IMG/VR virus record: IMGVR_UViG_2529292921_000020
Source of the DNA: a virus
Taxonomy: Duplodnaviria > Heunggongvirae > Uroviricota > Caudoviricetes
DNA: 43,121 nt
Strand: one strand, 5' to 3'
Part shown: positions 4,138 through 39,238 of the stretch, piece after piece
How positions within the stretch are numbered: the first letter of the stretch is position 1
Layout: the number at the start of each line of letters is the position of its first letter
The notes under the pieces: model-generated
Database searches by the model: none
What the model was told of the DNA's origin: nothing
What the model saw: only the letters and a program-made list of their open reading frames with translations
Translations under genes and position numbers: made by a program

Positions 4138-6193
<2,056 letters not shown>

Positions 6194-7948: not shown

Positions 7949-8367
7949 CTATGATGCGTTTTGTGCTTTCTTTTTACGGATTTCTTCGTAGATCATATTG
8001 TAATACTGTTTTTTCTCTTCAAGAGTTTTTAATAATTTATCCGCTTCACTTTCTGGCAGTTCGTCTAAGAGATCTAAAAAAATACGTTGTCGTGGCGTTA
8101 GAACCCTTGTTTCATAACTGGAGGCTGTGTTCGTTGATGATGAAACGATACCATCCATCCATCCCCGGGGTAACCCAAAGGACTCTTCGATAATCTCCAC
8201 CATATCATCAGCGATCCGTTTTTTCCCTTTTTCCCCTCTGGGTACAACATTCTTGATACATAAGAAGGCTCGCGCCCGATCTTTCTGGCCACGTTAACCG
8301 CTTTACCATCGCATTTCTCATCACGAATTTTGATGAGTTGCTGTCGTCTAAATTCATATTTGTCCAT
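7949..8367 (-). pseudogene. Leftward prophage repressor (RacR/DicA position, HTH N-terminus), split into two overlapping frames by an apparent frameshift in T6/T5 runs at about 8217-8230
   Basis: ORFs 8098-8367 (HTH-like ...AVNVARKIGREPSYVSRML...) and 7949-8203 overlap in different frames; both frames are open across the homopolymer tract, so a 1-nt indel would give one ~140-aa protein. Confidence 0.55.
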
Positions 8368-11281: not shown

Positions 11282-11788
11282 GTGGAGATAATAATGGGAA
11301 TAACTAAAGAACGATTGTTGGAAATAGCAAACCTTAGTGATTGGGCATTAAGTGATGAGAGAATTGTTTCTCCTCATGCTTATGAGTCAGTTACAAGTAT
11401 AGAAATAACAACAATGGCTAGAATGCTGCTTGGTTATTTCAAAATAGAAAATAAAAAACAGATGGATAGTAATGTTGATATATGTGAGATTTTAGACGAT
11501 TGGGGGGCTTGGGTTGTGGCTGGTAATAGTTCTATTGATTGGCAGGAAATAGCTGATAAATATAAAAATGTTGTTCCTCATGGTAAAAAATCACGTCGTC
11601 AGTGCAGCAATGATGAAGGGCGAATTATTGACATTAGTATCCTTAGGTTAGAAAGATATAAGCAACAAGAATATGAGTTAATTGTTGCTCATTTCGTGAT
11701 TGGTTTATCTCTTCGTGCTATTGCAAAGCAACAAGGATGTTCAGATGGAACAATTCGTAAAAGATTGCAAAAAGCCTTAGGTTTTTGA
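11282..11788 (+). CDS. Q-like antitermination-family protein (QuuD-type), AT-rich
   Basis: 168-aa ORF; motifs WGAW, SRRQCSNDE and C-terminal HTH CSDGTIRKRLQKA resemble my recollection of DLP12 QuuD; real start may be internal. Confidence 0.45.
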   Translation: MEIIMGITKERLLEIANLSDWALSDERIVSPHAYESVTSIEITTMARMLLGYFKIENKKQMDSNVDICEILDDWGAWVVAGNSSIDWQEIADKYKNVVPHGKKSRRQCSNDEGRIIDISILRLERYKQQEYELIVAHFVIGLSLRAIAKQQGCSDGTIRKRLQKALGF

Positions 11789-11817: not shown

Positions 11818-12450
11818 TCAGCGGTTTTTACCAGTGTAATGGTATAAGGATACTCCCATGTGTCTTACATGATATGGAAGCGCTGTTGCTGGATGCTTTG
11901 TGATACTCTTAAAGCGGAGGGGAGAGCCTTCCGCTTCAATTTCTGCGTCCGAAACGGTCGTAGAGAAAAATTCTTTCCATTCATTGAATTTTACTGCTGA
12001 TTTGTCAGACTTTATATAAATTAGAATTCCTCCATGATCGTCACGTGACGTACCCGTGCCGTAACGTTCGGTTAGCTGAATCCAGCCATTATGAATAGAT
12101 TTGGGGCCTCTCCATAATTTTGCTTCACCGATCCATTCGAATTTTCCGAATTGATGTTTAACTAATAAATCAACGTGACCGCCATGTTGAGTATCATGTT
12201 CAACATCATAAAACCTACCTTTCAGGAAATTTTTGATCGACGCTGTTAGCTCGTCCTCTCCCCACTTAGCATCTTGATAGAAGTGTTTGTCATTTTCTAA
12301 ATTCTGAATAGCGTCGTCTAAATCTTCATAGAGTTGCTTTACAAAAATATTTTTGTCTGCAGCTAATTTTCTTTGAACCATTCCCCTAAATTCAGGATCC
12401 ATTCTAATTAATGATTGAAGGTCTGCAGTACAGATGTTTACATCACTCAT
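11818..12450 (-). CDS. PD-(D/E)xK-type nuclease-like protein, third gene of a three-gene operon
   Basis: About 210 aa from MSDVNICTADL; core motif GGHVDLLVKHQFGKFEWIGEAKLW (D...ExK); start ATG overlaps the upstream stop (ATGAGTGA). Confidence 0.55.
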   Translation of the reverse strand: MSDVNICTADLQSLIRMDPEFRGMVQRKLAADKNIFVKQLYEDLDDAIQNLENDKHFYQDAKWGEDELTASIKNFLKGRFYDVEHDTQHGGHVDLLVKHQFGKFEWIGEAKLWRGPKSIHNGWIQLTERYGTGTSRDDHGGILIYIKSDKSAVKFNEWKEFFSTTVSDAEIEAEGSPLRFKSITKHPATALPYHVRHMGVSLYHYTGKNR

Positions 12451-12871
12451 GCAGACTCTCCAAAAGACTCGAAGGAGTAAAGTATGGATAAAGATACTGG
12501 CTAAAATTATCAACCAATTCGCCAGTTTCTGGATGGTAAAAACTTCCTGTGTCTAAAGCATAGGAAATAAGATCATCTTCAACTGGTATTGGTTCTTCCG
12601 TTAAATTATCAATGTATTGAAAATGCATATCCAATAGATGTGCTTTATAGCTAGATAAATAATCAGTTGCTTTTATTAGCAGGATATAGTCATCTTTCGT
12701 ATCAGTTAGATAGGTTAAACCATTGATAAGGGTTTTGTATGTAAAGTGATTGATATTTTTAGCATCTTTACTAACCAGAAAAAGAAAAAGATCACGACAC
12801 ACACTGCGAACAGGATCATTAAAATCCTGCTCTATTTGCGTGATAATGTCGTGATATATACTCTTTTTCAT
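12443..12871 (-). CDS. Hypothetical protein, middle gene of the three-gene operon
   Basis: 142-aa ORF, AT-rich; start overlaps the stop of the upstream gene (ATGA) and its stop overlaps the start of the nuclease gene. Confidence 0.5.
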   Translation of the reverse strand: MKKSIYHDIITQIEQDFNDPVRSVCRDLFLFLVSKDAKNINHFTYKTLINGLTYLTDTKDDYILLIKATDYLSSYKAHLLDMHFQYIDNLTEEPIPVEDDLISYALDTGSFYHPETGELVDNFSQYLYPYFTPSSLLESLHE

Positions 12872-13964
12872 TTATGGCCTGATGATCTCGCTCTTCTTTT
12901 CTCTTCACAGGACTTAACAGAATCCAATATTTTTTCAACAATAAATATAATCGAATCAATGTTGTTACAGTTCTTCGCAATTGCTTCATGCAACCTAATT
13001 CTAGGATTATCAAGCATTGTCCTTTTTCCTGGTAATATTAACTCTACTGATAAAATATGTGAAGAACTTTGTGGTAAATCCCAAATTTTTCCCAACTTAA
13101 ACTTTGTCAATATTGGGCTTGCGGACTCTCCACTATGATGGTAAACATCTTGACGCAAACACTTTTGACTTGGTTTGAGTTTTAAAGAACTTGTATTGCC
13201 ATCTGAGGTGATAAAAGATACATGAGAAATTCTGCCATCTACTTTTTCGTAAAGATCTTGTATTGAACCAAATAATTCAAGAGGATTGTTTAAAATAACG
13301 CCAGCTTCTTTTTTATAAATTTAGCCACAAGGTATTGTTGAGGCTGTGATTCACTTCTTGGAAGGATAGATAAATCAATCGTAAGAATTAATATTTTTTC
13401 TGCAGGCATTAGCATGATGGTATTAAAGCATTGCGTGACTTGGCGTGTTTTGCATTTTATTTCTCCACCATTAGCACGTAATTCCATACCCGCATCGCTA
13501 AGATGTGTTGGGTCAAGCTCTATCACTTCAGTGTAATACGCTTTGGATAAAAAAACAGCAGTGTCAATTTGTTTATCACGAATGATATCTTGACGTAGTT
13601 CAGCAAAATGCAGCTCAGTATCAGCAACTAACAGCTCCTCTCTGGATAAAGGAATTGGGTATTTTTCTGAGAAGGGGCTATTGTCCTTTTTCTGATTTGT
13701 GAAAATTGTTTGTAATTTTGCTACGTCTTCATCGGTGATTCTATAAATAGAAAGTAATCGATTCCCGCTAAAAATTAAACCTTTCCAGAAATCGTCGATT
13801 CTGTCTTTTAGGTCGGGATTATGCTGAACTACACTATTTACACGTTCAATAAAAAGGGGTAATCCTTGGGCCGTTACACCCAGTGATGAACCAAGAAGCT
13901 TACGGGTGTTGCGCCAGCCAAAGCGTGAATTGATGTTTTTTACTGTTTGCTCAAGCATTAACAC
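12868..13964 (-). pseudogene. First gene of the three-gene operon, split into two frames (13290-13964 and 12868-13320); about 360 aa if fused
   Basis: 224-aa ORF ends at a TAA at 13290-13292 while the downstream frame is open from 13320 to 12868 without a start codon; the frames overlap around a T6 run at 13309-13314. Confidence 0.45.
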
Positions 13965-14304
13965 TTCCTTAATTTTCCCTTAACAATTTAGGGTGCTAAA
14001 CTTTTTTGCGCAGTTTACATAAAAAAATAGTGCGTACGCAAAAACTATCTAACATGATGAGCTTTAACCGGGAAATTTGTATATGTTGTGAGCATAAAGT
14101 TGGCTGAGAAATCTAAAACGGGTAGAATGACTGCGGGTGCTTGAGGCTATCTGTCTCAGGCATGAACACCAAAAGGCAGATAGAGAAAAGCCCCAGTTAA
14201 CATTACGCGTCCGGCAAGACGCTTAACATTAATCTGAGGCCATATCTATGCTCTACACACGTAGGTTAGCCTCTTACGTGCCGAAAGGCAAGGAGAAGCA
14301 GGCT

Positions 14305-14460
14305 ATGAAGCAGCAAAAGGCGATGTTAATCGCCCTGATCGTCATCTGTTTAACCGTCATAATGACGGCACTGGTAACGAGGAAAGACCTCTGCGAGGTA
14401 CGAATCCGAACCGGCCAGACGGAGGTCGCTGTCTTCACAGCTTACGAACCTGAGGAGTAA
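14305..14460 (+). CDS. hokD: Hok/Gef-family type I toxin (HokD/RelF-like), with overlapping upstream mok-like frame from 14248
   Basis: MKQQKAMLIALIVICLTVIMTALVTRKDLCEVRIRTGQTEVAVFTAYEPEE, near-identical to my recollection of E. coli HokD; upstream leader has inverted repeats (CTATCTG / CAGATAG). Confidence 0.8.
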   Translation: MKQQKAMLIALIVICLTVIMTALVTRKDLCEVRIRTGQTEVAVFTAYEPEE

Positions 14461-14526: not shown

Positions 14527-14553
14527 TAACCCGCTTCGGCGGGTTTTGTTTTT
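14527..14553 (+). terminator. Rho-independent terminator downstream of hok
   Basis: CCCGC-TTCG-GCGGG stem-loop followed by TTTTGTTTTT. Confidence 0.6.
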
Positions 14554-17448: not shown

Positions 17449-17576
17449 CTACACTTATTTTCCCGGCTCGCTTTTGCGGGCCTTTTTTTTAAATGTCTCA
17501 CAATTCAGACGGTTGACAGTTGTCTGTTTTGCGGGGAGTTTGTTAAGTAAGCGACTCGTCAGAACCGTATTGATAT

Positions 17577-19148
17577 TTACTGAGAGCTCAGATCAACTTT
17601 CCAGGGCAACAGATCGCGTACCCGGTTTGCCGGCCAGTCCTGGATATGTTCAATGACGTAACGCAGCCACTTTTCTGGCTCCACATTGTTCAGACGGCAT
17701 GTGCCGATCAGCGAGTACAACACCGCCGCATGTTCACCACCGCTGTCGGAACCCGCGAACATCCAGTTTTTCCGGCCTACGGCCACTCCCCGTAAGGCGT
17801 TCTCTGCGATGTTGTTGTCGATTTCCACCCAGCCATTACTGCAGTACACGTTCAGTGCATCCCACTGTTTCAGCAGGTATGCGAACGCTTTTGCCGTATC
17901 TGAGTGACGCGACAGTGTTTTCATCTGTTGCTGTATCCAGTCATACAGTGACTGCATCAGTGGCGCGGCTCTGGCTTTTCTTGCCGCCAGACGCTGTTCT
18001 GCTGAACAGCACCGGACCTCTGCCTCGATGGCATACAGTTCACCGATACGCTGCAGGGCTTCCGTGGTGATGTAGGTGGGCGCTCTTGCATGCACATCGT
18101 GGATTTTTCTCCGGGCATGAGCCATACACGCGGCTTCCGTTATTCTGCCGGATTCGTATAACGCCCGGTAACCACCGTAAGCATCGGCCTGAAGCACACC
18201 GCTGTAACCGGCCAGGTGATTTTGTGGATGGATACCTTTCCGGTCCGGACTGTACGCGAACCAGACCGCCGGGGGCATCTGTGAACCGGCGTTACGGTCA
18301 TCACGGACGTAGACCCACAGCCGGGCTGTCCGGGTTTTACCGCTGCCCGGCTCCTGGACCGGGACGGGGATATCATCAGCATGGACTTTACCGGGCATCA
18401 GCACATACTGGCGCAGGACGTCATACAGCGGCTCCAGCAGTTCAGCAACAGCACCTGTCCAGCGCCCCAGTGTGGCACGGCTCAGCTCCACGCCCTGACG
18501 ACGGTATATTTCTGACTGGCGGTATAACGGCAGATGGTCTGCATATTTCCCGGTGACAACATGGGCCAGAAGCCCCGCTCCGGCATAACTGCGTGCAATG
18601 GGTTTTGAAGGTACTGGTGCCTGCACGATATGGTCGCACCGGCAACAGGCCTGTTTCGGACGTTGTGTTTCGATAACCTTAAAGGCGCTGCTGATAAGCT
18701 CCAGTTGCTCTGACACATCACATCCCAGAGAACTGAGTTCACCACCACAGGCAGGACAGCATTCCTCTTCCGGCCGGATAACCCGGGTTTCACGGGGAAG
18801 TGAGGCCGGTAACGGTTTACGGGCTGAAGACTGGCGCAGGGCGGATGGCAGTACCGGGTCATATTGCTCACCCAGCGTTTCCGCCATTTCTTCCTGAAGT
18901 GCGCTGATTCGCTCCTGTGCTTCCTGTATCTGCCGTTCGGTTTTTGCACGAAGTTTTTCTGAGCTTTTACCGAACTGCATACGTTGCAGTTTCGCAACCA
19001 GCGCCTTCAGCCGGTTGATTTCGGAAGCATAAGCCGCCACCCGCTGTGAGAGCAGGCGGTTGTATTCAGCCATCTGGCGGATGGTGTCCTGTTGCGTCTG
19101 CAACAGTGCCCGCAGGCGGGCGTTCTCATGAGCAAGTGAGGTGTCCAT
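17577..19148 (-). CDS. IS66-family transposase (TnpC)
   Basis: 523-aa ORF with N-terminal coiled coil, Cys-rich zinc-binding region and DDE core typical of IS66 transposases. Confidence 0.85.
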
Positions 19149-19167
19149 ATCCTCACTTTACAACGGG

Positions 19168-19515
19168 TTATATGCGGATTCCAGCGCGTTCCGTTCGTTT
19201 CGGGTGCTTCCAGTTGATACCTTCAAGAAGCATGGATAACTGAGCCGGAGTAAGGTGCACCTTGCCGTCACGGGTGACTGGCCAGACGAAGCGGCCCCGC
19301 TCCAGGCGTTTGGTGAAGAGGCACAGTCCGTCACTGTCAGCCCACAACACTTTTATCTGGTCACCCCGGCGTCCGCGGAAGATGAACAGGTGTCCGGAGA
19401 ACGGGTCATCCTTCAGGACGTTCTGAACTTTTGATGCCAGGCCGTTAAAGCCATTTCGCATATCGGTGATACCTGCAACCAGCCAGATACGCGAACCTGC
19501 AGGGAGAGATATCAT
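19168..19515 (-). CDS. IS66 accessory protein TnpB (Orf2)
   Basis: 115-aa ORF MISLPAGSRIWLVAGITDMRNGFNGL..., characteristic IS66 Orf2. Confidence 0.8.
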   Translation of the reverse strand: MISLPAGSRIWLVAGITDMRNGFNGLASKVQNVLKDDPFSGHLFIFRGRRGDQIKVLWADSDGLCLFTKRLERGRFVWPVTRDGKVHLTPAQLSMLLEGINWKHPKRTERAGIRI

Positions 19516-20192
19516 CAGTGGCTGCTCCCTTTTATTTCGCGGATAAGTGTCTGTAATAACGCCGGCGTCAGTTTACCTTTAAGCCTGAGAGTTCCGGCCG
19601 GCAGAACCAGCTCACAACACAGACTGTCGGACGGTGTATTTATCTGCTCTGGTTCCTGTGCGGGGGCCGGGATTTTATTATCCGGCTCCGGCGTTAACGT
19701 CACGGGAAGCAGTGCCGGCATATTTTTTCCGGAAGGCAGCAGGCCACCTTTCCGGTATTGATGGCGCCAGTTGAAGAGCAGGTTATCGTTGATTCCGTTT
19801 TCCCGGGCGATCTGCGCCACACAGGCTCCGGGCTGCAGTGACTGCTCCACTAAGGCGATTTTAAACTCATAAGGGAAGTTGGGCCGCCGGGGACGTTTTT
19901 TTACCACGGGGGCTTCGGATATAACGGTGCTTTCAGGACGTACGACTGGTACCGTGGAAAATTGTCCGTAAAGGCAGGCATCAAGTTCCTGCTCCGACAT
20001 GCCTGCGGGCAAAGGCCACGAAAGGCCAGCTCTCCGAAAGCGCACGAACATACTACAAACTGTTGATTTTGGTACACCCAGGCGACGCCCGGCCACAACC
20101 CGGGGTAAATGTTCTTCAAAGTGAAGACGTAAAGCTTCAGTGATCCAGGTCCGGTGTTTCATACGATAGTGTCCATTAAAAATGATGGACAT
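19515..20192 (-). CDS. IS66 accessory protein TnpA (Orf1)
   Basis: 225-aa ORF with N-terminal HTH, first gene of the IS66 operon, coupled to TnpB. Confidence 0.7.
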   Translation of the reverse strand: MSIIFNGHYRMKHRTWITEALRLHFEEHLPRVVAGRRLGVPKSTVCSMFVRFRRAGLSWPLPAGMSEQELDACLYGQFSTVPVVRPESTVISEAPVVKKRPRRPNFPYEFKIALVEQSLQPGACVAQIARENGINDNLLFNWRHQYRKGGLLPSGKNMPALLPVTLTPEPDNKIPAPAQEPEQINTPSDSLCCELVLPAGTLRLKGKLTPALLQTLIREIKGSSH

Positions 20193-20646
20193 TATTTTTG
20201 TAGAGCCGGAGGAAACAGACCAGACGGTTTAAATGAGCCGGTTACTTTGTTAAAAGAAACTGGCATGGTGAATCCCCCTGTGCGGAGGGGCAATCAGCGA
20301 GTAGGTATATGGGATAATCGCGGATTCAGGTGCTGGTACTGAATTCACCGGGAGGCACCCGGCACCATGCAATGGCACATAGCGCCACTCTCCAGCCCCT
20401 CTCCGGAGGGGCTTTCTTATGGACAAAAAAAGCCCGCGCAGGGAGACGCGGGCGGCAAGGAATAAACAACAAAACGTGAAGTAATATTTCAGCTGGCGAA
20501 TAATATCCGACAGTAATCACTCTGCGCAATAGCGCGGCCTTTTTCGTATTGCGGACTGTTGTCTCTCTTCTGCCATTGTCCTGTAACTTCCGGACTTCAG
20601 CCCGCTCCTCATTTTACTCACAATATTATCCCGGCCGGGAGGATTC

Positions 20647-28494: not shown

Positions 28495-28556
28495 CCCTGT
28501 TCACACTGTAACCATCACGAACCGCTCCGGCGGTTTTTTATTTTCAGGAGGCTGAT

Positions 28557-37812: not shown

Positions 37813-39238
37813 TAATGCCAGTCAGTTAAGCAACTGACTGGCTCTTTTTCGGGGCTGTGGGGTATTTCCAGGGCCTCTCCTTTACCACTCTCGGGAAGGC
37901 CCTTTCCCTTCTTGTCGGTAATTTCACAAGTTGTCCCATACTTGCAAGATCGCGCATCAGCTCCGGTATACGTCCCGGTGAAGCGCCCTGCAATGTCATC
38001 AGCATTCTCATCACCATTCCGCATGATTCTGAGAAACTCAGTTGATTCGGCCAGTAACCTTTCAGATGTTCCGCCATTTTAATCATCTGATATCTCACCA
38101 GATTATAAGCCAGTAAGACACCCCACAGCTCTTGCTCCACAAGCTCCGGCTTTTTACTTCTCAGCGTCAGCCTGCTCCGTTGCATCGTCTGTTTTATCTC
38201 CCTGTATCCCAGTTCGATTTCCCAGCGATGACTGTACAGATCCCCCATTTCTCCTCCGGGGAAGCGCATGGCGTCCGTCATCGACGTCAGCAGATGGCAG
38301 ACTTTTCCTTTGCGCGTCACGGTCAGCAGGCGGGCAGTCACTTCATTTCCCAGTCCCGGCCACTTTTTTCGTGCCTGCGGGCTGGTTTTCAGCTTCACCA
38401 GATGATCGCCTTTACCCAGTTTTCTGATCTCTTCATATTGCGCTCCCTTTCTGAGAGGTATCATCCAGTGGCGGTGTTCTCCCGCCAGGCTCCAGGCATT
38501 TAACAGTCCCAGTGAGTAATAACCTTTATCCATTAACGTCAGAGTGTTATCGCCGGTTTGTTCTATAAGTTGCTCAGCAAGCTCATTTTCGCTGTTCTTC
38601 ATCGTGCCGAAGGCTGCAGCCGTCAGCAGATGGCTGGTCAGTTCCATCTGGCAGACCATTTTGACCTGCGGGTAGAGCGCCGGGTTCCCGGCATGTGTCT
38701 GGCGGGGGAAGGCTGCATCGTTCTCTGGTGTATCCGGTGTGCGCCAGAACACACCATCGATGGCCAGCAGGGTCAGGCCGCACCAGTGCGGATGCGGCGT
38801 GGCGTTATGCCAGAGCTGCGCTGTTTTCGTGAACACGCGGCGGACAGCCTCACTTCCCAGGCGCTGGCGGGCCTGAATAACGGCACTGGGGGCAACGAAG
38901 GGGCGATTGCCCGGCAGCATGATGTCCAGGCGATTCACAATCTGGTGAAGAGGTTCTTTACGCTCAAGCGCCATGCCAACAATACACCAGACCATCATTT
39001 CGAGGGGAAGACGGCGCTTGCGTAGCGTTACAGTACCTGATTCGGCAAGGCAACGAGAGATGAGTTCGGGGTCGAGGTAATCCCCCAGAGAAGTCAGTGG
39101 GTTACGCAGAGAATCGTAACGGGATACCAGATCAAGAGCCTGTCCAATGTGCATAAAAAAATCCGGAAACAAGTGAGCGTTTCCGGATTCTTACACAGCC
39201 ACTGGATCGGTCAACTGATCCTTAACTGATCGGCATTA
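37813..39238 (-). mobile_element. IS4, 1426 bp, flanked by 12-bp direct repeat GAACCGCTGAGG
   Basis: Termini TAATGCC... and ...GGCATTA; GAACCGCTGAGG at 37801-37812 and 39239-39250; element length matches IS4. Confidence 0.9.
37826..39154 (-). CDS. insG: IS4 transposase InsG
   Basis: Translation from [30 protein letters not shown]... matches my recollection of E. coli K-12 InsG; the ORF-track start at 39172 is 6 codons upstream of the likely true start. Confidence 0.9.

Follow-up and report, generated by a model that had tools for sequence, protein, structure and literature searches.

Does the first gene of a three-gene cassette in a lambdoid prophage still encode a working protein, or has a one-nucleotide change in a homopolymer disabled it? 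The original prediction held that this gene is divided between two reading frames that meet at a short homopolymer, and it offered three explanations, on which the integrity of the whole module depends: inactivation by a 1-nt indel, an error in the sequencing, or a slippage site. The locus lies in a 43,121-nt stretch of viral DNA, which we refer to as the window. The window, which matches part of draft contig AIEW01000022.1 exactly, is a lambdoid prophage 99.85% identical to one in EPEC E2348/69.

Re-reading the sequence reproduced the predicted layout at every coordinate: both frames, the stop at 13290-13292, the downstream frame open from 13320 to 12868 and the T6 run at 13309-13314 (Table 1). 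The upstream frame could start at GTG 13964 or at ATG 13958, the latter being more likely the start, 6 nt after AAGGAAG, and it runs to ...TTT ATA AAA AAG AAG CTG GCG TTA TTT TAA (stop TAA 13292-13290, minus strand), so its 222-aa product ends in 6 out-of-frame residues (KLALF plus one K). The -1 frame opens right after a TAA, closes at TGA 12870-12868, and contains the family's best-conserved motifs (DGRxS, TxDGN, CLRxDxYHH, GKxWD and LPGKRxMxD). The claim that this downstream frame is startless was borne out: no start-like codon occurs before TTG 13158, and a properly spaced Shine-Dalgarno sequence precedes none of the 6 in-frame candidates. Both frames overlap at the run of six As (A6; minus strand 13314..13309).

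Table 1. Positions in the window of the split gene, its cassette partners and the flanking genes.
Feature	Position (nt)	Strand	Description
Hok/Gef-family toxin gene (hokD in relatives)	14248-14460	+	Directly upstream of the cassette, divergent
Gene 1, 5' part	13290..13958	-	222-aa truncated product from ATG; GenBank-identical to ECDEC1B_1533 and others
A6 run plus G	13308..13314	-	Site of the proposed 1-nt contraction; zero frame reads A_AAA_AAG
Gene 1, 3' part (-1 frame)	12868..13320	-	150 codons, without own start or ribosome-binding site
Gene 2	12443..12871	-	142 aa; PHROG 11490; intact in every copy examined
Gene 3	11818..12459	-	About 213 aa in relatives; PHROG 9664; probable PD-(D/E)xK nuclease
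Q-family antiterminator gene	11282..11788	+	Convergent; outside the cassette, marks its boundary

Adding a single A to the run in the window yields a 363-aa protein with 100% identity to WP_000893384.1 of E2348/69, so the arrangement of two frames is not a chance one. Annotations of E2348/69 and STEC367 show the first gene as a single 1,092-nt ORF encoding 363 aa. Base-by-base alignment revealed seven As (A7) in 4/4 fetched relatives where the window has A6, and scanning for allele-distinguishing DNA patterns placed 4/4 metagenome contigs and 15/16 IMG/VR contigs in the A7 class. The module is present in 14 of 5,426 complete E. coli genomes, every one at 99% identity or more, and the match lengths in all 14 fit A7. 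Searching 5.8 billion proteins identified 31 further gene-1 homologues from 8 or more genera (Salmonella, Klebsiella, Kosakonia, Cronobacter, Pantoea, Erwinia, Rosenbergiella and Yersinia), nearly all of them 359-366 aa long and encoded by single ORFs that cover 97-100% of the fused query. The fused length of 363 aa, which had been proposed as a check, falls within this range, and the orthologues from Salmonella to Yersinia are single ORFs rather than the two separate genes that were envisaged as the alternative. Homologues do not conserve the Lys-Lys pair that the A-run specifies; they read FIKKEAG, FVKEHAG, FVRSVTG or FIQDTTT at this position. From these comparisons we read the two ORFs as halves of one gene and, because relatives carry A7 and orthologues are single ORFs, the A6 as a derived 1-nt contraction of A7.

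The same arrangement could in principle serve programmed -1 frameshifting, in which A_AAA_AAG would direct synthesis of the 222-aa product and the 363-aa fusion in a set ratio, as in dnaX or the IS3-family transposases. The heptamer is perfect and in the zero frame (13314-13308), the -1 frame is open across it, a -1 slip would restore the exact wild-type junction (FIKK/EAG), and A_AA.A_AA.G is among the most efficient E. coli motifs, given stimulators (PMC4066793). However, the downstream 83 nt show no notable structure (MFE -9.9 kcal/mol, z=+0.57, with 142/200 shuffles folding at least as well), no Shine-Dalgarno-like element (GGAG/AGGA) was found in the upstream 30 nt (AGCCTCAACAATACCTTGTGGCTAAATTTAT), and motifs without stimulators yield frameshifting in E. 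coli at just 2.1-10 times a background of 0.055% (PMC4066793). Moreover, the copies examined outside the DEC-type A6 carriers are A7 single ORFs, and the Lys-Lys pair and A-run are missing from orthologues in other genera. One finding points the other way: with strong over-expression, a C-AAA-AAA sequence in pDEST17 gave 25-60% rescue of 1-nt deletion mutants (PMC1851650). We nonetheless regard a programmed site as very improbable, and conclude that the two-frame layout of gene 1 is not a recoding site.

A more serious competitor to a genuine frameshift is an artefact, in which the strain's true sequence would be A7, gene 1 would be an intact 363-aa ORF, and base-calling would reproducibly under-call this 7-mer. 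The indels that separate the window from E2348/69 amount to 7 bases at 6 sites, all of them contractions of plus-strand T-runs; among runs of at least 6 nt, 6/35 T-runs and 0/38 A-runs are contracted (Fisher p=0.0095), and by length these are 2/24 T6 runs and 4/10 T7 runs, the latter proportion being in keeping with an artefact. Sister draft AIFD has A-run errors too, so this T-run asymmetry is not general. The window also differs asymmetrically from E2348/69 in its substitutions, with reference T replaced by G 5 times and A by C 0 times.

Comparing sister assemblies separated these contractions into two kinds. Those at window positions 11781, 11824-5 and 14548, together with many more that are private to AIFD, are patchy: they differ between strains that are nearly identical and disagree with the SNP tree, which is the signature of noise. 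Three such homopolymer noise sites lie within 1.6 kb of the gene-1 A6 in the source draft, as an artefact would lead one to expect. Two contractions, in contrast to these patchy ones, are constant in every assembly of the lineage, namely the gene-1 A6 and a T7-to-T6 change at 8218. Five drafts from a single project (AIEW, AIEX, AIFA, AIFB and AIFD) and two Logan read assemblies encode the 222-aa truncated product; A6 is called in 8/8 DEC1/2-lineage assemblies without disagreement between sisters or contradicting data, whereas other 7-mers fail in at most 1/7 assemblies. In the two Logan contigs of the lineage, which are clean at every other run, A6 is the sole run-length difference from E2348/69, and contig L031, although error-prone (three private contractions in 3.3 kb), retains A7 at the gene-1 site. 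These observations all weigh against systematic under-calling. We had considered all homopolymer indels of the window to be noise, a view that we dropped for the gene-1 site because A6 is constant in sister drafts and recurs in later runs.

The distribution of A6 across strains bears on the artefact in both directions. A6 sits on two gene-1 haplotypes, I102 (that of the window) and T102 (DEC6B, SRR14792989 and SRR22715071). On I102, the A6 carriers all come from DEC-project assemblies or from early SRA runs whose reads probably belong to that project, so the sequencing platform is not independent for the window's own haplotype; the DEC drafts were presumably sequenced by 454. The sole A6 contig in IMG/VR (L024) comes from a different prophage background from the window, and its nearest relative is A7 and differs from it by one SNP plus the A-run gap. 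We rejected this contig as an independent clean occurrence, since it is E. coli DEC6B of the same project, and an A6 call in an unrelated lineage of that project is also what an artefact would produce. The DEC6B-type truncated product, however, occurs in much later Logan runs as well, SRR14792989 (an identical contig in 5 samples) and SRR22715071. These come from strains other than DEC6B, from whose sequence their contigs are set apart by two or three SNPs and a C6/C7 run; both carry A6 and agree with E2348/69 at all 12 other runs of at least 6 nt. Neither half of gene 1 has a further amino-acid change relative to WP_000893384.1, an absence of secondary decay that is expected for an artefact or for a very recent event. 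Co-segregation of A6 with clade SNPs, which we also considered, was weakened by the finding that the SNP at 12690 is private to E2348/69 and not DEC-specific.

Because A6 recurs on T102 in later, otherwise clean run assemblies, it appears to be a real allele in nature, and its presence on two haplotypes points to recurrent slippage at a hot spot. Our favoured reading is that the window's A6 is a real, recurrent frameshift, to which we assign a probability of about 0.72; a reproducible miscall, as set out above, we consider unlikely, though it is the strongest of the alternatives. Of the three explanations first offered, the inactivating indel is thus the best supported, given single-ORF orthologues and A6 in independent, otherwise clean run assemblies; sequencing error was a reasonable concern and keeps some probability for this lineage, given the homopolymer noise at neighbouring sites of the source draft, and a programmed slippage site is not supported.

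Other differences between the window and E2348/69 were also recorded. The constant contraction at 8213-8218 (T7 to T6), present in all five DEC1/2 drafts, splits a minus-strand gene (7949..8367) on the repressor side of the immunity region, which encodes 139 aa in E2348/69, into 89 + 84 aa; it is also found in the unrelated run assembly ERR4562137 (98.5% identical background), and T7 stands at this site in at least 80 IMG/VR contigs. The remaining T-run contractions lie at 11781-11786, 11825-11831, 14548-14553 and 28533-28539, of which the first two affect the Q-family gene and gene 3 at their 3' ends, and the last falls between genes, in a T-run resembling a terminator downstream of the large terminase gene. 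The change in the Q-family gene (T6 to T5 at about 11781-11786) is patchy among sister drafts and is noise; the change in the last codons of gene 3 (A7 to A5 at about 11825-11831) is private to the window's draft and is probably an assembly error. IS differences fall at 4138-6091, 17547-20277, 33960-35511 and 37813-39234: the window holds IS21-family and IS66-family elements that are missing at those positions in E2348/69, a differently positioned copy of ISEc13, and an additional insertion, about 1.4 kb long, ahead of the tape-measure region.

The predicted operon organisation proved correct. Genes 1 and 2 overlap by ATGA, with the gene-2 ATG over the gene-1 stop, and the start of gene 3 lies 8 nt ahead of the gene-2 stop. 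Salmonella lambdoid prophages and an unrelated Yersinia phage context share this gene order, with products of 360-365, 140-144 and 210-213 aa. RefSeq gives gene 3 a length of 197 aa in the relatives, as compared to 209-213 aa in other genera, and an upstream ATG that overlaps the gene-2 stop by 8 nt gives 213; the RefSeq start is probably placed too far downstream. Scanning for promoters upstream of gene 1 gave no promoter-like site on the minus strand. The cassette lies between the Hok/Gef-family gene and the Q-family antiterminator gene, a typical position for a moron.

Profile searches gave few clues to function. Genes 1, 2 and 3 match PHROGs 12777, 11490 and 9664, all of them function-unknown; a Pfam search assigned no family to any of the three, with no hit for gene 1 (RdgC included) at E<=1; PADLOC-DB v2 profiles matched neither gene 1 nor gene 2 and gave for gene 3 only PDC-S54 at E=1.4e-3; and a sequence search of the PDB returned nothing usable for the three genes and no hit for gene 1. 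The structural model of gene 3 (pLDDT 90.5) and an invariant D94...E109-x-K111 motif among its homologues indicate a probable PD-(D/E)xK nuclease; its Foldseek matches, all above E=0.02 and none significant, are mostly proteins of the restriction-endonuclease fold.

Copies of the cassette in E. coli revealed that gene 1 is damaged recurrently. At least 10 distinct gene-1 lesions were found in copies at 99.2% identity or more (loci L002, L003, L016, L025, L031, L164-L168 and L173-L180). They comprise, in the start region, deletion of T at nt 2 in the start codon (the commonest) and ATG to ATT; single-base changes (deletion of C at nt 100, deletion of G at nt 173 and +1 at nt 832); two IS1-associated 5' truncations; and length changes in A-runs, A6 to A5 and A6 to A7 at nt 555-560 and A7 to A6 at nt 639-645. 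No lesion of gene 2 occurred in any copy compared, and gene 3 differed only in two error-prone drafts, in both at the A7 run within its last five codons. Among the 14 complete genomes and 19 scorable pattern-found contigs, samples that were not selected on gene-1 fragments, 7 copies had gene-1 lesions and 0 had gene-2 lesions, with the integrity of genes 2 and 3 in 10/14 complete genomes taken from annotations and not base by base; if lesions were proportional to gene length, the probability that all 7 would fall in gene 1 by chance is about 0.009. This recurrence raises the prior for a real frameshift in the window. That gene 1 is repeatedly knocked out while its partners stay intact suggests that carrying it has a cost, which would be expected of a sensor in an abortive-infection or exclusion module, and gene-1-specific loss in an uncharacterised, widely mobile three-gene cassette makes it a reasonable candidate for experimental testing.

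Might these lesions reflect a phase-variable contingency switch, in which the A7 (codons 214-216) and A6 (codons 185-187) are kept as mutable on/off tracts for gene 1 and the cassette? Length alleles at both runs in near-identical copies (A6/A7 and A5/A6/A7), the occurrence of A6 at codons 214-216 on two haplotypes and the targeting of gene 1 alone are consistent with such a switch. Phase-variable tracts are usually 8 nt or more, however, and those of gene 1, at 6-7 nt, are shorter than is typical; half of the lesions fall off the runs (start-codon loss, IS1 and single-base indels), a pattern that plain loss of function fits better; and no reversion was seen among the copies compared. We consider a switch improbable.

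The structural model of gene 1 is similar to RdgC over most of the chain, and the protein is accordingly predicted to have an RdgC/RexA-like fold; RexA itself was not among the top structural matches listed. Lambda RexA and E. coli RdgC share the RexA/RdgC/IML3/CHL4 DNA-binding fold (PMC11077077). Gene 1 has no sequence similarity to either and is longer (363 aa), and whereas the partner of RexA is a RexB-type membrane protein, the partners of gene 1 are a 142-aa protein and a probable nuclease. A predicted DNA-binding sensor and a nuclease effector carried as a prophage moron would plausibly form an exclusion module. A fuller scheme is that of an undescribed exclusion system built from an RdgC/RexA-like sensor, a small adaptor and a PD-(D/E)xK nuclease, in which the costly sensor would be repeatedly switched off, preferentially at two A-runs acting as evolvable on/off switches, and the A6 heptamer would keep up a trickle of sensor; we think it improbable that all of this holds.

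For the window's strain, we propose that replication slippage at a homopolymer hot spot contracted A7 to A6 in codons 214-216 of the 363 in gene 1, and that the premature stop 7 codons past the contraction would leave a 222-aa fragment without the C-terminal domain and most of the invariant residues. After residue 216 lie 34/62 of the invariant family columns, which the truncation removes; also lost, according to the gene-1 model, would be a C-terminal beta-rich domain and the last helix (residues about 240-361). Between the truncated end of gene 1 and gene 2 there are 419 untranslated nt, so translational coupling would be lost, and loss of gene-1 function would be joined by polarity on genes 2 and 3. 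With coupling to genes 2 and 3 gone, the cassette is most likely non-functional and the module not intact in this strain. The A_AAA_AAG that arises in frame by accident may nevertheless let through a little full-length protein, probably under 1%. Such a leak from the A6 allele is plausible.

These results have practical consequences. Annotation should treat the two ORFs as a single disrupted gene from the 363-aa family, neither as two genes nor as a recoding site, and the cassette should be scored as defective in this strain. They also illustrate that, in old drafts, real and spurious homopolymer frameshifts can lie within 1.6 kb of each other, and that the two can be separated by comparing sister assemblies and read-level assemblies.

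Two known systems frame the event. With the -1 sites of dnaX and the IS3 family, the gene-1 A6 shares the slippery heptamer A_AAA_AAG in the zero frame and an overlapping -1 ORF; unlike those sites, it has no stimulatory hairpin, pseudoknot or upstream Shine-Dalgarno sequence, it is not conserved, and its fused product is merely the wild-type protein of the relatives. The closer match is the homopolymer frameshift pseudogene, with which gene 1 shares a derived loss of 1 nt in A7, an early stop, the loss of conserved C-terminal motifs and intact orthologues elsewhere; by type, the event is an ordinary homopolymer frameshift disabling a gene, here in an uncharacterised prophage cassette. Gene 1 nonetheless differs from an ordinary frameshift pseudogene in two respects: firstly, its mutation creates A_AAA_AAG in frame, so that the allele could be slightly leaky; secondly, the gene has been struck by many independent lesions, which suggests selection for its loss and not just neutral decay.
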